A stretch of DNA of 23,575 nt from Candidatus Nanopusillus sp. GTDB lineage: Archaea; Nanobdellota; Nanobdellia; Nanobdellales; Nanobdellaceae. Position numbers and translations under genes: made by a program. This document shows positions 441 through 23,569 of this stretch, one piece after another. The notes below the pieces were generated by a model. It was not told where the DNA came from. It worked only from the letters and a program-made list of their open reading frames with translations, and searched no databases. The DNA lies in assembly GCA_046533775.1 (NCBI GenBank), contig JAWDOO010000008.1:1-23575 (forward strand), read 5' to 3'. Position 1 is the first letter of the stretch. Each line of letters opens with the position of its first letter.

Positions 441-464
441 GAGGGAATATATAGTCTCAGGAAC
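441..464 (+). other. 5' strand of the pre-23S rRNA processing stem
   Basis: 441-459 (gagggaatatatagtctca) is the perfect reverse complement of 3371-3389. 460-464 (ggaac) pairs with 3364-3368 (gttcc), leaving a 2-nt bulge at 3369-3370. Archaeal pre-rRNAs are excised from stems of this kind. Confidence 0.8.
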
Positions 465-3372
465 CCGCCCGGTGGATGCCCGGGCTCGGAAGCCGAAGAA
501 GGGCGCAGCAAGCTGCGAAAAGCTGGAGGAAGGTGCATGCAACCGTTGATCTCCAGATTCCCGAATGGGATATCCTGCCGAAAGGCATCCCGTAAGGGAG
601 GGGAACGCGGGGAAGGGAAACATCCTAGTACCCGCAGGAATAAAAAACAATTTGTGATTTCCTGAGTAGGGGCGACCGAAAGGGAAGAAGCCCAAACCGA
701 ATCCTCTAAAGTAATTTAGAGGAGATGTGGGGTAAAGGAACGGGAGCTTCCCGTTATTATATCCTCAGAACTCCGGTGAAAGTCCGGGGCCGTAGAGGGT
801 GACAGCCCCGTATGAGGATATAATAATGGGATTTCTCGTTTCCGGAGTACCGGCGGTTGAATTTCCGTCGGGAATTTGGGGGAAACTAGCCCCCAAGGCT
901 AAATACTCTCCGAGTCCGATAGCGTATTAGTAGGGCGACCGAAAGGTGAAAAGAACCCTTGGTAGGGGGTGAAAAGAGCCTGAAACCGGGCGGGGATTGT
1001 CTGGTAGGGCTAGTTAAGCACCTTATCTGGGAAAATCTGGTGACAGGTGAGTACCAGATAAGGTGCTAGCTAGTTCTACCGTGAGTTTTGAAGAACTTGC
1101 GGGGGAGTATACCCGAGTGGCGAGGTTAAGGTTATACCGAAGCCATAGGGAAACCGAAAGCCCGTAACCTGGTTTCCAGGTGAGGGGCGCTGTCCTATAA
1201 GGGCGGTTTAGTCACTCGGGTATGACCGGAAACCGGGCGATCTACCCCGGGGCAGGGCGAAGCGGGGTTTCCCGTGGAGGCCCGAAGAGGTGGGGCTTAC
1301 CTCTCTCATGACCTCGGGGTAGAGGTGAAAAGCCACTCGGGCCCGGATATAGCCGGTCCCCGCCGAAACTGACCCCAGCCAGGTCTCGGGTTAGGATCCC
1401 TATGGTGTAGAGAGACGGATTCTGTACGGGTTTCCGTACGGAGTCCAACTCCGAAGCCATAGGGTCCGTAGCCCGGGAAACGGGGATTGCGGGAAAGCCG
1501 CAATTCCGAGACGGGAACAACCGAGACCGAGGTTAAGGCCCCAAAGTGCTGGCTGAACGATTTTGAAGGAGTCTGTCCCCTAAGACATCGGGGATGTGGG
1601 CCTAATAGTGGCCATCATCTAAGGAGTGTGTAACAACTCACCCGACGAGGGGATAGGCTCCGAAAACGGACGGGTCTAAGCCAGCCGCCGAGACCTCGGT
1701 CCGCTGGCATTGCCAGTGTGAGGTAGGCGGGCGTCCCGATGGCCTAGAAGGGTTCCTGAAAGGGAGCCTGGAGCCGTCGGGAATGAAGATCCCCGCGGTA
1801 GTAAGAATCAGACGGGTGAGAATCCCGTTGGCCGAAGGGGGAAAGGTTTCCCAGGCAATGAAGATCAGCCTGGGGTTAGTCGATCCTAATCCAGGCTCCG
1901 AGTGGAGTCTGGAGAAAGGGAAAGGGGTTAATATTCCCCTACCGCTCCGATAGATGCGGTAACGCAACATCCTTTCCCGACCCGGAAGGCTAGGCATACA
2001 CAGGGGTGGGGTAAAACCCACTTACTGTGCCAAGGGGGATAGGACCGGAGAGTGCCGTCATGGCGAGAACCGGTCTAAACCCTGATGGGCCCGAAAGGGT
2101 TATGCCGAGGCCTTCCGGCAATGAAAAGGGAAAGGATGCGATTCGGAGCGATCGTACCGAAATCCATCATAGGTCCCCTGGGTGAGGAGCCTAAGGCCGT
2201 GGGGGTCAAGCCGGTCTAGGGAACTTGGCAAATTGGTCCCGTAACTTCGGGAGAAGGGATGCCTGCGGTGTGGACCGCAGGTCGCAGTGACAAGGGCGGG
2301 CGGACTGTTTATCAAAAACATAGCTCTCAGCAAGCCCGAAAGGGTTTGTACTGGGGGTGACGTCTGCTCAGCACCGGTATCTGAATCCCCCGTTCAAGGG
2401 GGGTAAGGACCGGTAAACGGCGGGGGTAACTCTGACCCTCTTAAGGTAGCGTAATGCCTTGCCAGTTAAATGCTGGCTCTGCGAACGACGTAACTAGCCC
2501 GCCACTGTCCCGGGCCGGCGCCCCCTGAAAAGCTATCCTGGTGAGAAGGCCAGGGACTTCCGATGGGTAAAAAAGACCCCGTGAAGCTTAACCGCAGCCT
2601 GTTGTTGCTCTGAAGAACCTGGTGTGTAGGGTAGCGGGGAGCAATGAATTCCTGCCGCTAGGTAGGAAGGATGCGACGATGAAACACCCGCCTCTGGGTT
2701 CTTCAGGGCTAACCCGAAAGGGGACAGCGGCAGGTGGGCGGTTTGGCTGGGGCGGCACCTTGCCGAAAAGATATCGGCAGGGTCCATAAGGTCAGCTCAG
2801 GCGGGTCAGGAATCCGCCGTAGAGGACAAGGCCAAAAGCTGGCCTGACTGTGCCCTGATCATCAAGGGGCACAGGGGGGAAACCCGGGCCTAGCGAACCC
2901 CGTACTCTCACTAGTGGGGGTACGGGCTGGCGGAAAAGCTACTCCGGGGGTAACAGCGCCGTCGCGGGCGAGAGCCCCCATTGACCCCGCGGTTTGCGAC
3001 ATCGATGTCGTCTCTCCCCATCCTGGTGGTGCAGAAGCCGCCAAGGGTGGGGGTGTCCACCCATTAAAGGGGATCGTGAGATGGGTTCAGAACGCCGCGA
3101 GGCAGTTCGGTTATAACTGTCGGAAGTGCTGGCTGCCTGAGGGGAAGGTCCGCCTAGTACGAAAGGAACGGCGGGCCGGGGCCTCTGGTATACGGGCTGT
3201 CCGAGAAGGGCATGCCCGGTAGCTACGCCCTAGGGGATAAGCCCTGAAAGCATCTAAGGGTGAAGCCCTCCTCAAAAATAGGCAGCCATTAAGGGGTCGG
3301 ATAAAAGATCCGACTCAGAGCGGCGGTGTAAGCTCCGAAAAGGAGTTCAGCCGACCGCTTGAAGTTCCCGTG
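460..3372 (+). rRNA. rrl: 23S (LSU) ribosomal RNA. The ends are approximate (+/-15 nt).
   Basis: A GC-rich island in AT-rich DNA. The 5' region reads ...CCCGGTGGATGCCCGGGCTCGGAAGCCGAAGAAGGGCGCAGCAAGCTGCGAAAAGC... Peptidyl-transferase-ring elements are present (CGATGTCG at ~3001-3008, GGGTTCAGAACG, CAGTTCGG at ~3080-3112). The length of ~2.9 kb is normal for archaea, so no intron-sized insertion is present. Confidence 0.95.
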
Positions 3373-3389
3373 AGACTATATATTCCCTC
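3364..3389 (+). other. 3' strand of the pre-23S rRNA processing stem
   Basis: Reverse complement of 441-464 with a 2-nt bulge (see the 5' strand feature). Confidence 0.8.
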
Positions 3390-4936: not shown

Positions 4937-6316
4937 ATGATTAATAAAAATGTTCTGATAAACTTAGAAAGGGATATAGAAGAAATAGAAAGATATATTG
5001 ATAAATTAAAAAATATTTTAAGAGAAATAAAGAGAAAGGAAGAAATGAAGAAATATTTTTATAAATTATATTTGGATGGATATTTTGATGAAAAAGAATA
5101 TAAAAGAAGGTTAACAATAATTGAAAAGAAAATAAAATATTTAGAAAAATCTAAATACTTAATATTATATGATTTAATTAATTTAATAAATAATAGTCAA
5201 AAAGTAATAGAATTTCTAAAGAATATAGAAGAAAAAAATGAAGAAGAAAATAAAAATATACAATATTATGAAATGAAAATAAATGATACAATAAATTATA
5301 TTAGTAAAGTTTATCCAGAAATATTTAAGAAAGAAGAAATAAAGATTGGTAAGAAATTTATTGAGGCATCAAATGTACTATTTAGAAAGAAGGAAGAAAA
5401 AAAGAAGAAAATAAAATTTAAATTAAAATTAACTGAAGAACGTAAAATAAATTATTATCAAGAGATTAAAAATATATTAATAAGATTTTCATATAAAATA
5501 TTTGGAGGAATATCTAGAAGAATTTTAAATAATAGTCCAAAATTATATTTCTATTTAAAATATTCATTAAAAGAGGCATATTATAATATAGAACCCGATG
5601 AATTTTTATCTATTATATTTTTATTTTCATCAATTATTATTATTATTTCAATATTTATATCATTATATCTTCTAAATATTTTCTATTTAATTTATGGTTT
5701 AATAGCATTTTTATCTGTAGTAGGATTACTTATACTATATTTCAATTATAAAAAACAGAGTATAGAAGAAGATATAAATAGAAATTTACCATTTGCTATA
5801 ATACATATGGCATCATTAGCAGATGCTGGGATAGAAATAAAGTATATAATAAAAATAATAAGTGAAACTGAGGAATATGGATATTTATCAAAAGAATTTA
5901 AAAAAATATATGATAAAATAAGTTTGGGAGAAGGATTAGTAGAATCATTAAGATCTGTTGCGGATGATACGTTATCAAAAGATCTAAAAGATTTTTTAGA
6001 TGAATTAATATTAACAATTACGTCTGGAAGAAAGATATCAGAATTTTTAATATTATATTCTCAGCAAGAAATGATTAGATATAATTCATTTTTAAAGAAA
6101 ATTAATCAGGTAATGAAGACATTTTCAGATTTATATGTTGGAATGGTATTAACAATTCCAATGATAATAATATCAGTCGGAGTAATGTTATTATCAATAT
6201 TACAACAAACATACAATTTGAATATTCAAGGAATATTAGAAATAATTACATATGTAGGATTACCTGCTATTAATATTGGCTTTATAATATTGTTTGATAA
6301 ATTAACAAAAGAATGA
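4937..6316 (+). CDS. Type IV filament platform protein, part 1 (FlaJ/TadB/TadC-like, one T2SSF-type domain) with a long N-terminal coiled-coil extension
   Basis: 459-aa ORF. Residues ~1-175 are Lys/Glu-rich and look like coiled coil. These are followed by TM helices and a T2SSF-like cytoplasmic domain (NLPFAIIHMASLADAGIEI...ISLGEGLVESLRSVADDT...ITSGRKISEFL), then further TM helices. Confidence 0.7.
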   Translation: MINKNVLINLERDIEEIERYIDKLKNILREIKRKEEMKKYFYKLYLDGYFDEKEYKRRLTIIEKKIKYLEKSKYLILYDLINLINNSQKVIEFLKNIEEKNEEENKNIQYYEMKINDTINYISKVYPEIFKKEEIKIGKKFIEASNVLFRKKEEKKKKIKFKLKLTEERKINYYQEIKNILIRFSYKIFGGISRRILNNSPKLYFYLKYSLKEAYYNIEPDEFLSIIFLFSSIIIIISIFISLYLLNIFYLIYGLIAFLSVVGLLILYFNYKKQSIEEDINRNLPFAIIHMASLADAGIEIKYIIKIISETEEYGYLSKEFKKIYDKISLGEGLVESLRSVADDTLSKDLKDFLDELILTITSGRKISEFLILYSQQEMIRYNSFLKKINQVMKTFSDLYVGMVLTIPMIIISVGVMLLSILQQTYNLNIQGILEIITYVGLPAINIGFIILFDKLTKE

Positions 6317-7137
6317 AGGAAGAAATAATTGACATACTTATTATTATAGTTCTTATATTTTTATTTTATTTTATATTTAATTTTAGTATTTTAAATTCAA
6401 TTGTAACTGGGATAATAGTTGGTATATTTCCATATTTAATCTATCAAACAATTGTTAATAATATAGAAAAAGAAAAAGAGGAACAATTTATTAGATTTTC
6501 AATTGATTTGATTGGATTATTAAAATCCGGACTATCATTACCAATTGCATTAAAGCAATTGGAAAAAAATGATTATGGAAGAATTAATGAACTAGTAAAA
6601 AATCTATCTTCAAGAATTGATTGGGGTGTTAGTATTGAAGATTCATTTACAGAATTTGCAGAGGAAAGTAATAATAGAATGATTAAGAGAACTATACAAT
6701 CTTTAATAGATATATATAAGGAAGGTGGAAATCTTGAACAAGGCTTGGAAGCAATCATAAATAGTATAATGGAAATTAGAAAAATAAAAGAAGATAAAAA
6801 GGCAGAAATACATGAAAATATAATTCATTCTTATATTGTATTCGCTTTTTTCTTAGGTATAGTATTTACATTTCAAATATTTTTATTACCATTCTTACAA
6901 ATTTCATTACCTGGACAGGCTTCAAATGTTAATTTTAATTTTATAAATAATCTAATGTATTATATGTCAATAATCCAAGCAGTTTTTGCTGGATTATCAA
7001 TGGGAAAGATGTATGATGATTCTTATAAAGCCGGTGCAAAATATGTAGCAATATTTCTATTTATGGTTATAATATTATTTAATATTATAATTCCAATTGT
7101 TCCAAAAGGTATGTTTTTAATAAATATAAATATATAA
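6313..7137 (+). CDS. Type IV filament platform protein, part 2 (FlaJ/TadB/TadC-like, one T2SSF-type domain)
   Basis: 274-aa ORF. Its ATG overlaps the upstream stop codon (ATGA at 6313-6316). TM helices flank a T2SSF-like domain (FSIDLIGLLKSGLSLPIALKQL...WGVSIEDSFTEFA...KEGGNLEQGLE). Confidence 0.7.
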   Translation: MKEEIIDILIIIVLIFLFYFIFNFSILNSIVTGIIVGIFPYLIYQTIVNNIEKEKEEQFIRFSIDLIGLLKSGLSLPIALKQLEKNDYGRINELVKNLSSRIDWGVSIEDSFTEFAEESNNRMIKRTIQSLIDIYKEGGNLEQGLEAIINSIMEIRKIKEDKKAEIHENIIHSYIVFAFFLGIVFTFQIFLLPFLQISLPGQASNVNFNFINNLMYYMSIIQAVFAGLSMGKMYDDSYKAGAKYVAIFLFMVIILFNIIIPIVPKGMFLININI

Positions 7138-7139
7138 AA

Positions 7140-7550
7140 TTATTTCTTTGCTTTCATAAACTTAGAAGATTTAGAAGCTCCAATACCTGGTGCTGAATGT
7201 TGAACTTTCTTTGTTGTATGAACAAATTCTCCCAATCTTCTTCCAATCATTTCTGGTTTTATTTCAAATTCAACAAATTCTTTTCCATTATATACTCCAA
7301 CCTTTGCACCAACAATTGAAGGCAATATAATAATTTCTCTTGAATGTGTTTTTATTGTTTTCTTATATTTTCCCTGTAATTGTAAATAGCATTTTTTATA
7401 GAAATTTTCCCATTCTGGTGGAAATCCAATTTTTAATCTTCTTAATAATGTTCTTCTTGTCCTACTATTCACAACTTTTTGGGCAAATTCTTCAATACTC
7501 ATACTTTTTAATTGATCCAATGTATATCCCCTAATCATGAATTCTGGCAT
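7140..7550 (-). CDS. rps19: Ribosomal protein uS19 (S19p/S15e)
   Basis: 136-aa ORF with the family core THSREIIILPSIVGAKVGVYNGKEFVEFEIKPEMIGRRLGEFVHTTKKVQHSAPGIGASKSSKF. Confidence 0.9.
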   Translation of the reverse strand: MPEFMIRGYTLDQLKSMSIEEFAQKVVNSRTRRTLLRRLKIGFPPEWENFYKKCYLQLQGKYKKTIKTHSREIIILPSIVGAKVGVYNGKEFVEFEIKPEMIGRRLGEFVHTTKKVQHSAPGIGASKSSKFMKAKK

Positions 7551-9320: not shown

Positions 9321-9321
9321 T

Positions 9322-10815
<1,494 letters not shown>

Positions 10816-16835: not shown

Positions 16836-18134
16836 TTAATAACGAGTTTTTAATTCTTCTAAAAATTTTATTCTTTCATCAACTGAATCTAATTCTCTTT
16901 TTATAAATTTTTCTAATTCGTCAGGTTTGATATGAGCAATTAAAATGCTCCAAAGTCTTGAGCTAATCTTTTTTTTAAGTGTAGTTTCATATTTATGAAA
17001 CATCTGCAATAATAATGTTTTTGCTTTATTGTATTCATTTAGTGTGTCGTTTATACTTTCTAATATTTGGTTTTTATATCCCAAAGCTTTTTTATGCTCA
17101 TCATCTAATATCTGCTGAAGTTCCGATATAACTTTTTTATCTATATTGGAATCTTTATCAAGTTCTTTAATTTGGTTTAATACATCATAATAAAGTTCTT
17201 CTATTGATCGGATTTTTCGTAATTTTTCTATATCTTCTATATCAGTATTTTTTTTCTTATCTAATTCATCTAAAAAAGCATTTAGTTTATTTTTTTGCTC
17301 TTCTTTCAAATTACTCATAATTTTATTTAAAGTTTCTTCATATCTATTTCTTAACCCACTAAAAAATGCAACATGATCCATTTTTATATAATATAAAGTA
17401 TCATTAAATTTCTTATCTGCAGTCTCAAGAGCCTTGCTTAATTCTTCATAAAGGTTATAGTTTTCTTTTAATACATTTAATAGTTCTGATATATTCCTTA
17501 CATCTACTTTAGAAAGATTTCTTTTATTCTCTAATTCTTCTAATTCTTCCATTGTCTTTAAGAGACTTTTTTTTACATCAGCTTCAAAAGATTTAGTTGC
17601 ATAATGAAAGCTTTTTCCATAAGAAATAGCAGCTCTTCCAAAGAAAAATAAGGCTACTAATGCGAGTACTAATAAAATAAATCCATAAAGATTAAGTAAA
17701 AATGGTATAGCATAACCTATTGATATTGCAGAAAATATGCTTAGAATAAATATAAATAATATTTTTGCTTTTTTCATCGTTTCACTTTCAGATATATTAG
17801 CTCCTTTTATTTTTTGCATAAATATTTCAAAGAGAAATGCATATATTGCAACAAAGAATAAAGTAACTATTAAAAATGTTATAATAGTCCAAACATAAGA
17901 TGGTATTCCATTAATAGATATAAAACTAGCTAAAGATTGACCCGCAGTTGAATAACCATTAATTGAAGAGTTAATAATCCATTGGATAATAGAATTTGAT
18001 TCTAAACTACTTATTGCTGCATTGTTTTGTGCAGATGTTCCTTGGGAATATACTGAATAAATAAATCCTATTAAGAATGGGACAGTAAATATAGCTATTA
18101 GTAACTTCTTATTAATATTTTTTATACCCTCCAT
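16836..18134 (-). CDS. Membrane-anchored coiled-coil protein, cassette copy 1 (unknown family)
   Basis: 432-aa ORF. It has an N-terminal signal-like helix ending VYSQG, a Ser/Asn-rich ~45-aa segment, three further hydrophobic helices, and then ~260 aa of Lys/Glu/Leu-rich helical sequence. Confidence 0.7.
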   Translation of the reverse strand: MEGIKNINKKLLIAIFTVPFLIGFIYSVYSQGTSAQNNAAISSLESNSIIQWIINSSINGYSTAGQSLASFISINGIPSYVWTIITFLIVTLFFVAIYAFLFEIFMQKIKGANISESETMKKAKILFIFILSIFSAISIGYAIPFLLNLYGFILLVLALVALFFFGRAAISYGKSFHYATKSFEADVKKSLLKTMEELEELENKRNLSKVDVRNISELLNVLKENYNLYEELSKALETADKKFNDTLYYIKMDHVAFFSGLRNRYEETLNKIMSNLKEEQKNKLNAFLDELDKKKNTDIEDIEKLRKIRSIEELYYDVLNQIKELDKDSNIDKKVISELQQILDDEHKKALGYKNQILESINDTLNEYNKAKTLLLQMFHKYETTLKKKISSRLWSILIAHIKPDELEKFIKRELDSVDERIKFLEELKTRY

Positions 18135-18229
18135 TTTATTATATGAATTTGTTAAAATTTATAAATTATTTCCTTACAATTATAACAAAAAAGGAATAAA
18201 TATAAAAAATTAAATAAATAAATAAAAAG

Positions 18230-18346
18230 TTATAATGTGCTATCTTTATATTTATTCAAGGATGTTTTCTTCATAACTTCTTTTATTTCTAAAGCTTTTT
18301 CCAATGCTAGATTTAATGCATCATTTAATTCTTTATTAGAAATTTC
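18230..18346 (-). pseudogene. Remnant copy of the rrp41 3' end (last ~38 codons plus stop codon), with no start codon
   Basis: 18281-18346 matches 19973-20038 at 64 of 66 nt. In the same frame the copy reads EISNKELNDALNLALEKALEIKEVMKKTSLNKYKDSTL then a stop codon, versus EISNKELNDALNLALEKALEIKNLMRNNILNHLSSDNFVY then a stop codon in genuine rrp41. An in-frame stop codon lies upstream of the fragment. Confidence 0.8.
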
Positions 18347-18351
18347 GTATT

Positions 18352-18399
18352 TCTCTAGGTTTAGAAAGATTGGTAAATTATGATGGGAATTTCAAAGGA
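18352..18399 (+). pseudogene. Remnant copy of an internal lhr segment (codons SLGLERLVNYAGEFQR), frameshifted
   Basis: 18352-18399 matches 16181-16229 with 2 mismatches and a 1-nt deletion. The reading frame terminates a few codons later. Confidence 0.75.
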
Positions 18400-18550
18400 A
18401 GAGATCTTCTTTAATATTTGGGAAATGAAAAATTAACATGTCTTTTGTAAAGTTTATTTAGGTCTTTTAGATTATCTGTAAGATAGTGAGATGAATCTTA
18501 TTAATAGACCCTTCTAAAGATTTAATTCTCTTAAATACAATTTCATCATT

Positions 18551-19867
18551 TTATTTTCTTTTGAAGGTTTTAAATGCTCTATAACTAGATGCTATAGATT
18601 TCGAAATACTTCTACTTAATTTATTAGTCAAGTATAATAATTTTTTTGGATTTCTTTTAAATTTACGTAAAGATTCAAATAATTTTTTCGTAGATTTATC
18701 TGTTTCAGATAATATTTCCTCTTTTTTTAATGGAGATATATTTTGATTTTTATCAACAGCAGCGATAATGTTACTTAAGTTTTGTATTTGTTTTATTAGA
18801 GTTTTATTATTAACTAGAGATAAAAGAGCATTATTATTAGAAATTTCTTTTAAATTATTAATTATTTTAGTTTCAGATTTCCTATTAACAGCTTCTATAA
18901 AAGTTAATAATCCATTTAAATATGCGAATGTTTTCTGACCCTTTTTGTATGTAGTATTTAATCTTACATTCAAGTCATTTAGTATATTTCTTAGTTCCAT
19001 TAAATATTTTGGTGTAAATTTATTTGTTCTAAATATTCTATTTCCAAACCTTCTTAATAAAGAATAATTGCTAAGCATATTATTTATTATTCTATTTAAC
19101 TGTTCGACTTCATTTTTAGCCTTATTATATGTATTATCAAAATTTGAAGAATAATCTTTTAATGTATCTCGAGTTAATTCTTTATTTTCAGTTTCTTTTA
19201 ATAGGTTAGATATTATATTATTTAAAGTTTCTATATTCTTTTCTATAGAATCTAATAAGCCTCTTATTTGAGGATGATTTAGTATTTTATATAATTTATC
19301 TATGTCTTTTAGAATTTTATCTGTATCTTTATCAAAATCCTTAACATCTGATATTATTCTTGAGAAAAAGCTTGGTAATCTAGGACTAATCTTGCCTAAG
19401 GTTTCTTTAAAACTTTCCAATTTAGATTTACCAATTCTAAATACTTTTATTATAAACGCAATAATTAATATTGGTATAACAAAAGGCCAAAAGAAGAATG
19501 TGAGGGGTAAAGATATTACTAAGGAGGTTATAAGCTTTTCAGATTCTGGAGCTTGACTCTTAAAAGCATTTATGAATCTTCTGGACATAAAAAATAAAGC
19601 AAAAAATGAAACTAGAATTGGTAAATTTTCTATTAGATATGGTAAAATTTTTAAAATAATTGGTTCTAGGGGACCTAAATATTGAGAAAGCGTACTAAAA
19701 TATTGAGAAAGAGTATTAGCAGTAGATTCTAATAGTTGTTTATCTATATATAATGTACCTATAGATTCATTATACCATGTATAAGCATAATTATTTGATT
19801 GTGAATAAATGTTGGTAAAGTTTAGAATAAAGATTAATATCATCAAATATTTATAATTTTTTATCAT
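18551..19867 (-). CDS. Membrane-anchored coiled-coil protein, cassette copy 2 (same architecture as 16836-18134)
   Basis: 438-aa ORF. It has a signal-like helix ending IYSQS, a short polar segment, a cluster of hydrophobic helices with an intervening PESEK loop (ISESE in copy 1), and then ~290 aa of Lys/Asn/Leu-rich helical sequence with a basic tail. Confidence 0.7.
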   Translation of the reverse strand: MIKNYKYLMILIFILNFTNIYSQSNNYAYTWYNESIGTLYIDKQLLESTANTLSQYFSTLSQYLGPLEPIILKILPYLIENLPILVSFFALFFMSRRFINAFKSQAPESEKLITSLVISLPLTFFFWPFVIPILIIAFIIKVFRIGKSKLESFKETLGKISPRLPSFFSRIISDVKDFDKDTDKILKDIDKLYKILNHPQIRGLLDSIEKNIETLNNIISNLLKETENKELTRDTLKDYSSNFDNTYNKAKNEVEQLNRIINNMLSNYSLLRRFGNRIFRTNKFTPKYLMELRNILNDLNVRLNTTYKKGQKTFAYLNGLLTFIEAVNRKSETKIINNLKEISNNNALLSLVNNKTLIKQIQNLSNIIAAVDKNQNISPLKKEEILSETDKSTKKLFESLRKFKRNPKKLLYLTNKLSRSISKSIASSYRAFKTFKRK

Positions 19868-19915
19868 AATGATCTAAAAATATTTTATACTTTATAAAGG
19901 TTGTTATAAAAAATA

Positions 19916-20671
19916 CTAATAAACAAAATTATCTGAAGATAGATGATTTAATATATTATTCCTCATTAAATTTTTTATTTCTAAAGCTTTTTCCAATGCT
20001 AAATTTAATGCATCATTTAATTCTTTATTTGAAATTTCTCCGTCCAATTGTATTAAAGTAAATTTTTTCTCTGAAGGAATTATTGCAACCGGTATATCTG
20101 TAGCTCTTCCTTCTCCATAATATTCTATATATTTAGATTTTTCAGGATCTTTTCTTAATTTTTCAGAATCATAATCTTCTTCTTCTTTGTTTAAATCTAC
20201 AACAATTTTTTCCCCAACTTTTCCAACTGCTAAACCTATTACTAGATCCTTCATTGGAATACCTGCTAAAGATAATGCCAAAGATGCAGCATTTATACTT
20301 GCAGTTCTTGTCCCAGCATCTGCATTTAATATTTCAATATATATATCTATAATACTCCCAGGAATTTCTTCTAATAATAATGCCGGTTCTAATGCTCTCT
20401 TAATTACTTCAGATATTTCTATTTCTCTTCTACCTGGTGTAGGCTTTTTCCTTTCAGGTGTAGAAAATGTTAGCATATTGTATCTAACCCTTAAGAATGC
20501 TTTATCATAATCCAAAGACATTTTTGAAGATTTTGGTCCGTATACAGCAGCTAATGCAACAGTATCTCCGAATGAAAATATTGCAGATCCTTTTGCATTA
20601 TCTACTACATTTAGTTTTATATCTATTTTTCTTAGTTCATTATATTCTCTATCATCAAATCTTTTTACCAT
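19916..20671 (-). CDS. rrp41: Exosome complex RNase PH-like subunit Rrp41
   Basis: 251-aa ORF: RKIDIKLNV..AKGSAIFSFGDTVALAAVYGP, PGRREIEISEVI, ADAGTRTASINAASLALSLAGIPMKDLV, VVDLNKEEED. It carries a ~15-aa insertion (DSEKLRKDPEKSKYIEY) relative to the usual DL..EE....GE.D.PVA spacing. Confidence 0.9.
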   Translation of the reverse strand: MVKRFDDREYNELRKIDIKLNVVDNAKGSAIFSFGDTVALAAVYGPKSSKMSLDYDKAFLRVRYNMLTFSTPERKKPTPGRREIEISEVIKRALEPALLLEEIPGSIIDIYIEILNADAGTRTASINAASLALSLAGIPMKDLVIGLAVGKVGEKIVVDLNKEEEDYDSEKLRKDPEKSKYIEYYGEGRATDIPVAIIPSEKKFTLIQLDGEISNKELNDALNLALEKALEIKNLMRNNILNHLSSDNFVY

Positions 20672-20673
20672 TT

Positions 20674-21273
20674 TTATTTATTTTCCAAAATTTCTTTAAC
20701 CTTTTCAGTTAAACCCTTCTTATATGAATTATTTATAATAAATCTAATAATATCTACTACCTTCGATACATCATTTATATTACCATTTAAATATATTCTA
20801 CCATTTTTTCCAATTATTATATCAATTTTTAAATATTCTTTAATTAAATTTAACATTGAAGAATTTTTTCCAATCAATCTTGGAATTCTTGCAGGATCTA
20901 CTTTTAATATTAATCCATCATTTAATTTTTCCTTTTTCTTAATATCTAAATCTATTAATTTATTCTTTGTAATTTTTATAATTTGACATAATATATAATC
21001 ACCATAAGTATATATATTATTCGGATCTGTTCCAACATCTTTTAAAGATAATTTTCCTACATATGGAGAATTTATATCAACTAACCATCCATTAGATAGA
21101 ACATCAATTACTTTTCCAATTACAATGTCATTTACTTCTGGCATATAATATCCAAAAAGTCTTGCAGTTTTATCTTCATTTACTAATAATATATATTTTG
21201 AATAATAATTGTTATCTCTTTCATATGAGTTAATATCTTTTTTCTTTAAATTATCTCCAGGTATTAATATCAT
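20674..21273 (-). CDS. rrp4: Exosome complex RNA-binding subunit Rrp4 (S1 + KH), short N-terminal domain
   Basis: 199-aa ORF with an S1-like segment (YMPEVNDIVIGKVIDVLSNGWLVDINSPYVGKLSL), a KH-like segment (RIPRLIGKNSSMLNLIKEYLKIDIIIGKNGRIYL) and a C-terminal GLTEKV. Confidence 0.85.
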   Translation of the reverse strand: MILIPGDNLKKKDINSYERDNNYYSKYILLVNEDKTARLFGYYMPEVNDIVIGKVIDVLSNGWLVDINSPYVGKLSLKDVGTDPNNIYTYGDYILCQIIKITKNKLIDLDIKKKEKLNDGLILKVDPARIPRLIGKNSSMLNLIKEYLKIDIIIGKNGRIYLNGNINDVSKVVDIIRFIINNSYKKGLTEKVKEILENK

Positions 21274-21274
21274 C

Positions 21275-22381
21275 TTATAGATAATATATTATATCATTTT
21301 TAAACATACTTTCTAGCATATAACTTTCCTCATTTTTATGTTTTATTTTTTCTGCTTCATTTTCTAATATTAAAAATATATCTTTTATTGTTGAATATAA
21401 ATCATATCCATGGTCATCAATAGAAAATTTACCATTATTATATATTAATTTTGCTCTAATTTGGTAATATATTTTTTTATTTACATTATCTTCATTTACC
21501 TTTTTGATATGTAATATTAATCTAATATTTTCTCCTAAAACATTTCTATATTTTTTATAAAATCTCTCATACAATTTCTTTATATAATTTATATCTATTT
21601 CATCTAAAGATATCCCATGAACAACTAAATTATATTCTTTTTCCTTTTTATATTGTAAATAATGTATTAATATATCTTTTGCAGTTATTATTCCAATTAA
21701 ATTTCCATTATCTAATATTGGCAATGAAAATACTTTATTTTCTATCATTAAATTAATTATTTTTTCTATATTATCATCTTTATTTGCAAATATTAATTTA
21801 CTATTCATTATTGATTTTATTTTTACATCAAAATCTTTCTCATTTGGTGTTCTTATATTATTACTGTTATCAGTTAACATATATTTTAGAATATCTGTTA
21901 ATGAAATTATTCCAGATACTTTATTATTTTTATCTAATACTATTAACCTTGATATACCCTTATCTTTCATTATACCGATTGCTTTCTTAATATTTTCATC
22001 TTCATATATAGTATAAGCTTCATTTATTATTTCATTTAGATTCATTTTTCCTAGAATATCTTTATCATTCAATATATCCTTTAATACATCATATATATTA
22101 ACTATCTTTATTTGCCCATTTTCTCTTACAAAAGTTACTCTAGAATTAGAATTAATTAATTTTTCTATTATATCAATTATATTATTTGTTTTTAGTGGTT
22201 TTATTTTATTTACTATTTTTTCAATTTTTGTATCTGGCCTATATAAATATCTAATTGCTTTAGAATTTTCTAAAACTCCAAAAGGTTTTCCATTATTATC
22301 TGTTACAATTATATCTTCTCCCTTTTTTATATATTCAACAATATCTCCAATTTTTTTATCCTTAGATATAAATACTGCCAT
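21275..22381 (-). CDS. Four-CBS-domain protein with a C-terminal HPF/RaiA (S30AE)-like domain
   Basis: 368-aa ORF. It has four CBS-like units, of which the last two are clearest (ISRLIVLDKNNKVSGIISLTDILKYML; VFSLPILDNGNLIGIITAKDILIHYL). Residues ~250-352 can be aligned by eye to E. coli HPF, recalled from memory (details in findings). Confidence 0.7.
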   Translation of the reverse strand: MAVFISKDKKIGDIVEYIKKGEDIIVTDNNGKPFGVLENSKAIRYLYRPDTKIEKIVNKIKPLKTNNIIDIIEKLINSNSRVTFVRENGQIKIVNIYDVLKDILNDKDILGKMNLNEIINEAYTIYEDENIKKAIGIMKDKGISRLIVLDKNNKVSGIISLTDILKYMLTDNSNNIRTPNEKDFDVKIKSIMNSKLIFANKDDNIEKIINLMIENKVFSLPILDNGNLIGIITAKDILIHYLQYKKEKEYNLVVHGISLDEIDINYIKKLYERFYKKYRNVLGENIRLILHIKKVNEDNVNKKIYYQIRAKLIYNNGKFSIDDHGYDLYSTIKDIFLILENEAEKIKHKNEESYMLESMFKNDIIYYL

Positions 22382-22418: not shown

Positions 22419-23060
22419 TTACTTTTTGGTATTTTCTGATAACTCCTCCATAGCTTTTAAAAATGCTGTGGGAATTTTTATTATATTACGTTTTTTCTTT
22501 GGACGTTCTTCTTTGTGATATACCCAATATATAGCTGCAAGTACAAATCCTATTACTATAAGTAATGGGAGTAAACCAGTATATATCAATTCAAGCATTA
22601 TTTCTGTTATTATATTTTGAGCGGATGCTCCAAATCCGTTAAAATCTATTGAAGATGCATATAGAAATGCAAATAGAACTGTAAGCGTTATAAATCCAAC
22701 AATAACATTATGAGAATATTGTTTATATCTCTCAAATTCTTCATCTCCTTTATATGGTTCTGATATACCAGCCATTAATGCAATGATCATTAGAATAAAA
22801 AATATAACAAGTACTTCAAAAAAGAAGAATGATATAAAGTTTGATGTAAATATAACATCAGATATATTATATAAATAATAGAATGCTATTACCATAGAAA
22901 TTATTGCATACAATTTTTCTTTATTTGGATTATCCTTTCCAAACAAACCAGTTTTTCTAAGAGATCCATATAATAATGAAAATACTAATAAAAAAGGTGC
23001 TACAAATGTAAATATGCCATATTCTGAAAACAAATTATAAATAGATGATGAGAAATCCAT
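22419..23060 (-). CDS. Small multi-pass membrane protein with a basic C-terminal tail (paralog of 23066-23569)
   Basis: 213-aa ORF with ~5 hydrophobic helices. Its C-terminal half (...LLPLLIVIGFVLAAIYWVYHKEERPKKKRNIIKIP) parallels the neighbouring ORF. Confidence 0.6.
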   Translation of the reverse strand: MDFSSSIYNLFSEYGIFTFVAPFLLVFSLLYGSLRKTGLFGKDNPNKEKLYAIISMVIAFYYLYNISDVIFTSNFISFFFFEVLVIFFILMIIALMAGISEPYKGDEEFERYKQYSHNVIVGFITLTVLFAFLYASSIDFNGFGASAQNIITEIMLELIYTGLLPLLIVIGFVLAAIYWVYHKEERPKKKRNIIKIPTAFLKAMEELSENTKK

Positions 23061-23065
23061 TTTAT

Positions 23066-23569
23066 TTAGTTAGATTTAGGTATTACATATATTTGGCCCC
23101 CACTTTTTTCTTCTTTCTTTTCCTCTTTCTTTTCTCCACCACCAGCTAACCACATTAATACTAAGAATATAAATCCAAACATAATTAATAATTCTAAAAT
23201 ACCAGATTGCATAAGATAGTTGATTGTATATGATAATAGAGATATTAGTGATGATGAAGATGAAGAGGAAGAACCAGTTATACTTAAAGAATTTATAGCT
23301 AACCACAATATTATTCCTACAACAAGGAATGCAAAAAATGCTCTTAACCATGAAGGTATCTTTTTATTTGTAATTGTTAATACAATAACTATTAAAGTAA
23401 ATCCAATTATAGCTATAGTAGCATTAGGAATAAAAGATAATAACCATCTTACTAAATTTTGATTATATATTGATAAAAGAGCAAATCCGAGAGAAAACAA
23501 TGCGTTTAATTTTCTACCTACAGTATCATCAGGACTTGTTTTTAATAAATTAGATAATTCCAATATCAT
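23066..23569 (-). CDS. Small multi-pass membrane protein with a Ser8 tract and a Lys/Glu-rich tail
   Basis: 167-aa ORF with ~4 hydrophobic helices, an internal GSSSSSSSSL tract, and the tail ...ILELLIMFGFIFLVLMWLAGGGEKKEEKKEEKSGGQIYVIP. Confidence 0.6.
   Translation of the reverse strand: MILELSNLLKTSPDDTVGRKLNALFSLGFALLSIYNQNLVRWLLSFIPNATIAIIGFTLIVIVLTITNKKIPSWLRAFFAFLVVGIILWLAINSLSITGSSSSSSSSLISLLSYTINYLMQSGILELLIMFGFIFLVLMWLAGGGEKKEEKKEEKSGGQIYVIPKSN

Follow-up and report, generated by a model that had tools for sequence, protein, structure and literature searches.

A Nanopusillus CBS–HPF fusion protein is a probable HibA/AHA ortholog encoded beside the exosome genes rrp4 and rrp41

Results

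The CBS–HPF gene and its family

The window analysed here is a stretch of 23,575 nucleotides (nt) from Candidatus Nanopusillus sp. (assembly GCA_046533775.1, contig JAWDOO010000008.1). Our subject is a minus-strand gene near its end, here called hibA, which encodes four CBS repeats followed by an HPF/RaiA-like domain and which is followed immediately by the exosome genes rrp4 and rrp41 (Table 1). A first-pass annotation, made from the letters alone, had proposed this fusion of a CBS tetrad to a ribosome-hibernation domain and left open whether such a family had already been described in archaea. It has been: the CBS–HPF fusion family was published and experimentally characterised in 2025–2026, under the names HibA and AHA, and the window gene is an ordinary nanoarchaeal ortholog. 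From its sequence, the gene is very probably the Nanobsidianus/Nanopusillus ortholog of HibA (= AHA), acting as a ribosome hibernation factor.

Table 1. Coordinates of hibA, its parts and the other features of the window
Feature	Position (nt)	Strand	Residues	Description
hibA	21275–22381	−	368 aa	Complete open reading frame (ORF) with ATG start, stop codon included; HibA/AHA ortholog by a colinear P. abyssi match
CBS tetrad	21647–22381	−	1–245	Predicted 50S- and adenine-nucleotide-binding module
CBS repeats of the tetrad			CBS1 ~1–52, CBS2 ~53–108, CBS3 ~112–169, CBS4 ~187–245	
Loop, CBS3 helix to CBS4	21824–21874	−	170–186 (LTDNSNNIRTPNEKDFD)	Position equivalent to the HibA 'PTC loop' / AHA 'loop 3'
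HPF/RaiA-like domain	21341–21634	−	250–347	Predicted binder of the 30S decoding centre and mRNA channel
Elements of the HPF domain			β1 251–255, α1 264–282, β2 287–298, β3 303–314, β4 317–325, α2 328–347	
C-terminal tail	21278–21340	−	348–368 (HKNEESYMLESMFKNDIIYYL)	Position equivalent to the HibA tail reaching the mRNA exit channel
rrp4	20674–21273	−	199 aa	Exosome S1/KH cap subunit; RRP4_S1 and KH_6 (PF21266, PF15985), NF003181 E 3.5e-46
rrp41	19916–20671	−	251 aa	Exosome RNase PH catalytic subunit; PF01138, PF03725, TIGR02065 E 1.8e-76
23S rRNA gene	448–3382	+		
uS19 gene	7140–7550	−		
16S rRNA gene	9321–10813	−		
Direct repeat, first copy	18267–18346			80 nt
ORF between repeat copies	18551–19867	−	438 aa	No significant Pfam match
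Direct repeat, second copy	19959–20038			80 nt; lies in the 3' end of rrp41
Membrane-protein gene	22419–23060	−		Multi-pass, tandem paralog
Membrane-protein gene	23066–23569	−		Multi-pass, tandem paralog

HibA (Madru et al., preprint October 2025, Nat Commun 2026; PMC13324472; PDB 9SR9–9SRF) was found by cryo-electron microscopy on 70S ribosomes of stressed Pyrococcus abyssi. Its genes are PAB0961 in P. abyssi and TK1186 in T. kodakarensis, and it is also present in T. barophilus (PMC13324472). The C-terminal domain binds the mRNA/tRNA channel of the 30S subunit, and the CBS module, a disk of four tandem CBS domains, was seen in three positions on the 50S subunit, at the peptidyl transferase centre (PTC), uL5 and the L1 stalk (PMC13324472). 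AMP binds at the CBS3/4 interface with a dissociation constant of 12 µM, and neither AMP nor ATP had a clear effect on ribosome binding (PMC13324472). HibA blocks translation in vitro, and its deletion in T. barophilus results in a smaller 70S pool and delayed recovery; the gene occurs in 47% of archaeal genomes, and the survey database included the genome of N. acidilobi (PMC13324472). AHA of Hfx. volcanii (HVO_2384) is an independent description of the same family (Souza et al., bioRxiv 2026; PMC12934967), with two AMP molecules at CBS3/4 and 3,160 homologs across 17 phyla. Both reports include ribosome structures, AMP binding and knockout phenotypes (PMC13324472, PMC12934967).

Among database homologs, we found 16 full-length orthologs of the window protein (366–371 aa, 39–93% identity), whose named sources are Nanopusillus, Nanopusillaceae or Nanoarchaeota. 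Compared with the proteins of Candidatus Nanobsidianus stetteri Nst1 and Ca. Nanopusillus acidilobi, identity is 95% and 91%, respectively. Mean column identity in the ortholog alignment is 62%, with many invariant core and motif residues. An AlphaFold2 (AF2) model of the full-length protein, built from 14 orthologs, has a predicted local distance difference test score (pLDDT) of 87 and a predicted template modelling score (pTM) of 0.85.

Colinear match to P. abyssi HibA

One support for the identification is a match that runs through both modules. With phmmer, residues 19–342 of the window protein aligned colinearly with residues 32–367 of P. abyssi chain 9sr9_H (E 3.4e-19), and BLASTP against the same chain gave E 5e-20 over 323 aa. 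The colinear alignment spans all four CBS repeats and extends as far as the final HPF-domain helix. Chain 9sr9_H was deposited as 'Dehydrogenase'; it is HibA, as its rebuilt sequence matches 51/51 residue names in the authors' C-terminal contact table. Motifs common to the window protein and P. abyssi HibA include G-h-h-S/T-x-x-D in CBS3 and CBS4, LG(E/N), h-(H/Y)-I-(K/R)-(K/R)-x-N-E and YQxR.

The C-terminal HPF/RaiA-like domain

Profile and Foldseek searches, the checks proposed by the first-pass annotation, do match residues 250–352 to the HPF/YfiA family, so its interpretation of the domain stands. The peptide that it quoted is exactly residues 250–352 (nt 21326–21634), all of its coordinates are correct, and the E. 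coli HPF sequence that it gave for comparison agrees with the PDB chain. Four lines of evidence bear out an HPF/RaiA-like fold: a profile of the orthologs, PF02482 matches on the orthologs, the predicted structure and the fold search.

At the level of sequence, the likeness becomes consistent once the orthologs are taken together. A phmmer search of the PDB with the single C-terminal sequence (124 aa) returned no match, and a profile of orthologs was needed. PF02482 matches 10/12 orthologous C-terminal domains (best E 6.7e-6), and TIGR00741 (yfiA) weakly matches residues 266–353 of the window protein against model positions 19–98 of 102 (E 0.016). In the PDB, a profile built from 12 nanoarchaeal C-terminal domains matched P. 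abyssi HibA (9sr9_H, E 9.4e-4) and, along its full length, E. coli HPF (E 1.9e-3 to 3.3e-3). The 19 sequences found in this PDB search at E<=10 comprise one HibA, 16 proteins of the HPF/RaiA/pY/PSRP1 type and two weak, unrelated matches. When Foldseek was run on the predicted C-terminal domain against the PDB, ranks 1–38 were all HPF/RaiA/pY/PSRP1 proteins (best HPF match E 5.5e-5; target-normalised TM up to 0.79), and unrelated folds appeared from rank 39. Pfam matches of the isolated C-terminal region to MATH, RuvB_C and phiKZ_IP were at chance level; they were discarded because 10/12 orthologs match PF02482.

The same profile was searched against 1.84 billion representative proteins and found 33 at E<=1e-3. 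Nineteen of these are 350–390 aa long and one is 290 aa, and the domain is C-terminal in 20/20; the remaining 13 are standalone proteins of 98–156 aa. The profile also reaches HibA-like proteins of Archaeoglobales and Aenigmatarchaeota.

These results bear on another possibility, namely that the protein is a generic CBS regulator, for example an HhpR-like transcription regulator or an MJ1225-like metabolic sensor, whose likeness to HPF arose by convergence. JGI calls one ortholog a 'predicted transcriptional regulator', the single-sequence C-terminal search was empty, PF02482 is not called on the window protein itself, and MJ1225 scores above HibA on the CBS part. Yet the profile, Pfam on the orthologs, the predicted structure and the fold search agree on HPF/RaiA with no competing family, the domain is confined to architectures of the HibA or standalone-HPF type among 1.84 billion proteins, and the HibA match is colinear through both modules. 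We therefore regard convergence in a generic regulator as extremely unlikely and retain the assignment to HibA.

HibA has two archaeal-specific insertions in its HPF domain, β13–α11 and β14–β15, and deleting both leaves in vitro inhibition in place (PMC13324472). The window domain has the second of these, an 11-residue insertion in the β2–β3 (β14–β15) hairpin relative to E. coli HPF. We saw no clear sign of the β1–α1 (β13–α11) insertion: this segment aligns to E. coli HPF without a gap and is two residues shorter than in P. abyssi. Beyond the domain, tail residues Y354, K361 and Y367 are conserved among orthologs; confidence in the modelled tail is low (pLDDT 47–58), and the alignment to P. 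abyssi is unreliable there. The P. abyssi HibA tail contacts h23, uS7, uS11 and eS28 (PMC13324472, Supplementary Data 1).

We also observed that none of the tested archaeal proteins, whether HibA C-terminal domains (P0021, P0024, P0028, P0033) or standalone HPFs of archaeal type (relatives P0025–P0043), reached the PF02482 gathering score. At best they scored 19–23 bits vs 23.7, and most had no match. Every HibA tested falls below the PF02482 and TIGR00741 thresholds, and thus the genes are labelled 'CBS domain-containing protein'. JGI labels one protein, 92% identical to the window protein, 'CBS domain-containing protein/ribosome-associated translation inhibitor RaiA'.

The CBS module

The first-pass annotation counted four CBS repeats, and this count was borne out. 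In the AF2 model, residues 1–245 form four β-α-β-β-α repeats of the CBS type. Pfam CBS matches the window protein with E 3.3e-29, scoring two stretches only, which correspond to CBS3 and CBS4. In Foldseek, the CBS part superposes over ~260–290 columns on the four-CBS proteins MJ1225, SSO3205 and AMPK-gamma and on ribosome-bound SriA-D and Dri (E 3e-16 to 2.5e-13).

Only CBS3 (G157–D163) and CBS4 (G230–D236) retain the ribose-phosphate motif G-h-h-S/T-x-x-D, which in both is invariant or nearly so among orthologs; the CBS1 and CBS2 motifs are degenerate and lost. GIISLTD (157–163) and GIITAKD (230–236) align with GLVTLHD and GILTVKD of P. abyssi HibA. Because the motif is kept in these two repeats, AMP, ADP or ATP likely binds at the CBS3/CBS4 interface.

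Between CBS3 and CBS4, the 17-residue loop 170–186 aligns with residues 188–207 of P. abyssi HibA. Its sequence is variable among orthologs, and it is the lowest-confidence stretch of the modelled CBS module (block pLDDT 79). In HibA, an extended loop of the third CBS repeat inserts into the PTC; the contacts of the P. abyssi loop, in which Tyr195 stacks on the PTC adenine, are tabulated in Supplementary Data 1 of the HibA study (PMC13324472).

The degenerate CBS1/CBS2 motifs, the shortened CBS3 loop and the reduced ectosymbiont lineage would all fit a decaying relic, in which the symbiont retains an ORF whose product no longer binds ribosomes or nucleotides. Against decay, the ORF is intact and full-length in 16/16 orthologs at 39–93% identity with invariant core and motif residues, a conservation pattern of purifying selection, and the gene has been retained in genomes of only 0.6–0.8 Mb. 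We think it highly improbable that the gene is a relic; a working HibA ortholog is the preferred reading.

Divergence from the characterised protein

Several observations weigh against the identification with HibA. Identity to the characterised protein is just 23%. Of the 51 ribosome-contacting residues in the P. abyssi C-terminal domain, most differ in side-chain type; a few keep their character, namely H291 for Y317, E297 for E323, K311 for R336 and K333 for H358. TIGR00741 scores 15.7 bits on the window protein vs a cut-off of 40.9, and Pfam does not call PF02482 on it, relatives reaching 19–23 bits vs 23.7. Compared with the PTC loop of P. abyssi, loop 170–186 is shorter by four residues and has no obvious equivalent of Tyr195. 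Finally, when the CBS module alone was compared with the PDB (by pairwise score, with no tree), MJ1225 and one Sri chain outranked HibA.

HibA CBS modules have been described as a monophyletic HibA-CM clade that is sister to CM-5/SriA-like modules. Our CBS-only ranking did not single out HibA and so is unusable as a clade test; in the same comparison, colinearity from CBS1 onward was seen with HibA only. The HibA authors report that it is the core, and not the interfaces, that is conserved within the family (PMC13324472), and we thus treat the differences in contacts, loop and insertions as ordinary within-family divergence. Because the same trend is reported family-wide, the contact mapping is not positive evidence for the identification, nor is it strong evidence against it.

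The hibA–rrp4–rrp41 unit

The first-pass annotation noted that one nucleotide separates hibA from rrp4. This spacing is real and is widely kept across Nanoarchaeales: the hibA stop codon TAA occupies 21277–21275, a single base follows at 21274, and the rrp4 ATG begins at 21273. The gap between rrp4 and rrp41 is 2 nt. Every retrieved Nanoarchaeales locus of sufficient length keeps the gene order hibA–rrp4–rrp41, at HibA identities as low as 41%, and the junctions are 0–5 nt in nearly all of these loci. As the first cistron of such a tight unit, hibA is probably co-transcribed with the exosome core in Nanoarchaeales, judging from the spacing.

The most distant locus (L015, Nanoarchaeota MC-1, 6080–7042; HibA 36% identical) has rrp4 ~0.7 kb downstream, with a possible 149-aa ORF between hibA and rrp4, and the tight junction is thus not phylum-wide. 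No rrp4 or rrp41 was found within 5 kb of hibA in any of 13 loci of Archaeoglobales, Aenigmatarchaeota, Marsarchaeota and Micrarchaeota. Neither the HibA paper nor the AHA paper mentions an operon, synteny or Rrp4 (PMC13324472, PMC12934967), and our literature search returned no paper joining ribosome hibernation, Rrp41 and archaea, and none on CBS-domain proteins of Nanopusillus. The hibA–rrp4–rrp41 linkage, found in Nanoarchaeales only among the loci sampled, goes beyond the literature consulted here.

Other archaea carry exosome genes in a superoperon of translation-related genes that includes SBDS (PMC2695463). In two Nanoarchaeales loci, the genes called near hibA did not include SBDS. 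Likewise, rrp42 was absent 3' of rrp41 in the window (18100–20671) and within 5 kb in Nanoarchaeales loci L001 and L003–L014, even by relaxed tblastn, which as a search for a second RNase PH gene gave just a duplicated rrp41 fragment.

Upstream of hibA, on the same strand, two genes for tandem paralogous multi-pass membrane proteins follow one another with gaps of 37 nt (to hibA) and 5 nt (between them). Two to three such paralogs, ~165–220 aa long and with no significant Pfam match, are kept in nearly all Nanoarchaeales loci with enough upstream sequence (L001, L003–L013).

Other features of the window

G+C content is ~21% outside the rRNA genes (~20–25% in coding DNA) and ~55–60% within them. 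The 23S and 16S rRNA genes are unlinked and lie on opposite strands, ~6 kb apart, with genes for a type IV pilus/archaellum-type ATPase, membrane proteins, uS19 and a tRNA-guanine transglycosylase between them. The uS19 gene is solitary, outside any ribosomal-protein operon, and encodes a protein with a long basic extension at its C-terminus (...GASKSSKFMKAKK). The corresponding tail of P. abyssi uS19 pairs with the β13 strand of the HibA HPF domain (PMC13324472).

Two copies of an 80-nt direct repeat (91% identity) flank the 438-aa ORF 3' of rrp41, the downstream copy being a duplicate of the rrp41 3' end (aa 212–242). The ORF product has a hydrophobic N-terminus and is ~63% identical to its Nst1 and N. 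acidilobi counterparts, vs 90–95% for its neighbours; several other Nanopusillus loci have no match to it. This region looks like a site of variable-gene insertion or a recombination hot spot.

Discussion

By homology to the P. abyssi and Hfx. volcanii complexes, the HPF/RaiA-like domain of the window protein (residues 250–347 and the tail) would lie at the decoding centre, within the mRNA/tRNA channel of the 30S subunit, and the CBS tetrad would occupy the tRNA sites of the 50S subunit. With one module on each subunit, a single polypeptide would clamp the empty 70S ribosome and prevent mRNA and tRNA from binding. Ribosomes clamped in this way would be silenced, and their active sites would be shielded from nucleases in starvation or stress. 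We infer ribosome binding, nucleotide binding and physiological role for this protein from its sequence. The first-pass annotation had further proposed that the fusion couples energy state to ribosome inactivation. The union of a sensor with a ribosome-silencing domain holds, having been shown for HibA of P. abyssi and T. barophilus and for AHA of Hfx. volcanii; the coupling to energy state is no more than plausible, even for the characterised members, because AMP and ATP did not clearly alter the binding of HibA to ribosomes (PMC13324472).

The operon context invites two further ideas. One is that, in Nanoarchaeales, the exosome operon acquired hibA as its first cistron, placing a ribosome protector and the main 3'–5' RNA-decay machine on one transcript and coupling them functionally. 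If true, such a coupling could balance preservation of rRNA against turnover of rRNA and mRNA in an energy-poor ectosymbiont. It is permissible because SBDS sits in the exosome superoperon, because aSBDS was found together with HibA on idle P. abyssi ribosomes (PMC13324472), and because, according to the HibA authors, the exosome likely provides the 3'–5' rRNA-degrading activity of archaea (PMC13324472). We nonetheless rate functional coupling as unlikely, because little can be concluded from genes being neighbours in a compact genome.

The other idea is that a HibA-derived protein was re-purposed in Nanoarchaeales as a partner of the exosome, for example delivering or withholding rRNA or mRNA, instead of or besides hibernation. 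A gene order kept in Nanoarchaeales and absent at 13 HibA loci of other phyla, the poor conservation of ribosome-contact residues and the proposed role of the exosome in rRNA degradation (PMC13324472) would all suit such a partner. However, neighbours in a tightly packed genome of 0.6 Mb are a weak sign of partnership, exosome genes elsewhere already lie in a superoperon of translation genes (PMC2695463), and the protein has the architecture and core motifs of an ordinary HibA, with no exosome-binding surface suggested by its sequence. Re-purposing thus seems very improbable to us, and a hibernation factor of the HibA type remains the reading that we prefer.

The CBS–HPF fusion family extended HPF-type hibernation to Archaea and tied it to adenine-nucleotide sensing, a case already made with structures and genetics. 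The present locus is an ortholog that varies slightly in structure and whose operon context is specific to its lineage. It adds that purifying selection has kept a full-length HibA in archaeal genomes that rank among the smallest (~0.6–0.8 Mb), and retention there fits the idea that hibernation matters to an obligate ectosymbiont. The linkage to the exosome is a testable hint at the nuclease against which hibernation protects. There is also a practical lesson, as standard Pfam and NCBIfam annotation systematically misses the hibernation domain of the HibA proteins tested.

Comparison with known systems

The closest system is HibA/AHA itself. The window protein shares its architecture of four CBS repeats and an HPF domain (368 aa vs 392 aa for HibA), the loop at the CBS3 position, the nucleotide motifs in CBS3 and CBS4, where AMP or ATP binds in HibA/AHA, and the long β2–β3 hairpin insertion relative to bacterial HPF. 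It differs in the rrp4–rrp41 operon context of its gene, which the 13 non-nanoarchaeal HibA loci lack.

Bacterial HPF/RaiA (YfiA, pY) and plastid PSRP1 resemble residues 250–347 in fold, with a weak yet consistent profile match along the entire domain (E ~2e-3 to E. coli HPF), and by homology the same 30S decoding-centre site is expected to be bound. In contrast to the bacterial forms, which are standalone (~95–115 aa) or carry a C-terminal dimerisation domain, the window domain makes up the C-terminal third of a 368-aa protein and is fused after a CBS tetrad. It also has ~11 extra residues between β2 and β3, a longer terminal helix followed by a tail, and scores below the family cut-offs.

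SriA-D and ARC-A,P (Methanosarcina, Methanolobus) and Dri (Thermoproteota) share the CBS tetrad (Foldseek E 2e-15 to 2.5e-13) and are likewise ribosome-silencing factors tied to adenine nucleotides; for the CBS-only factors, the ARC preprint reported ATP-triggered release. Unlike the window protein, they have no HPF/RaiA domain, and Dri carries two CBS tetrads. Across archaeal genomes, Sri/ARC/Dri were reported to be largely mutually exclusive with HibA/AHA. Finally, aSBDS, encoded in the archaeal exosome superoperon, offers a parallel in gene context, as a ribosome-associated factor encoded beside exosome genes, although its protein family is unrelated to HibA.

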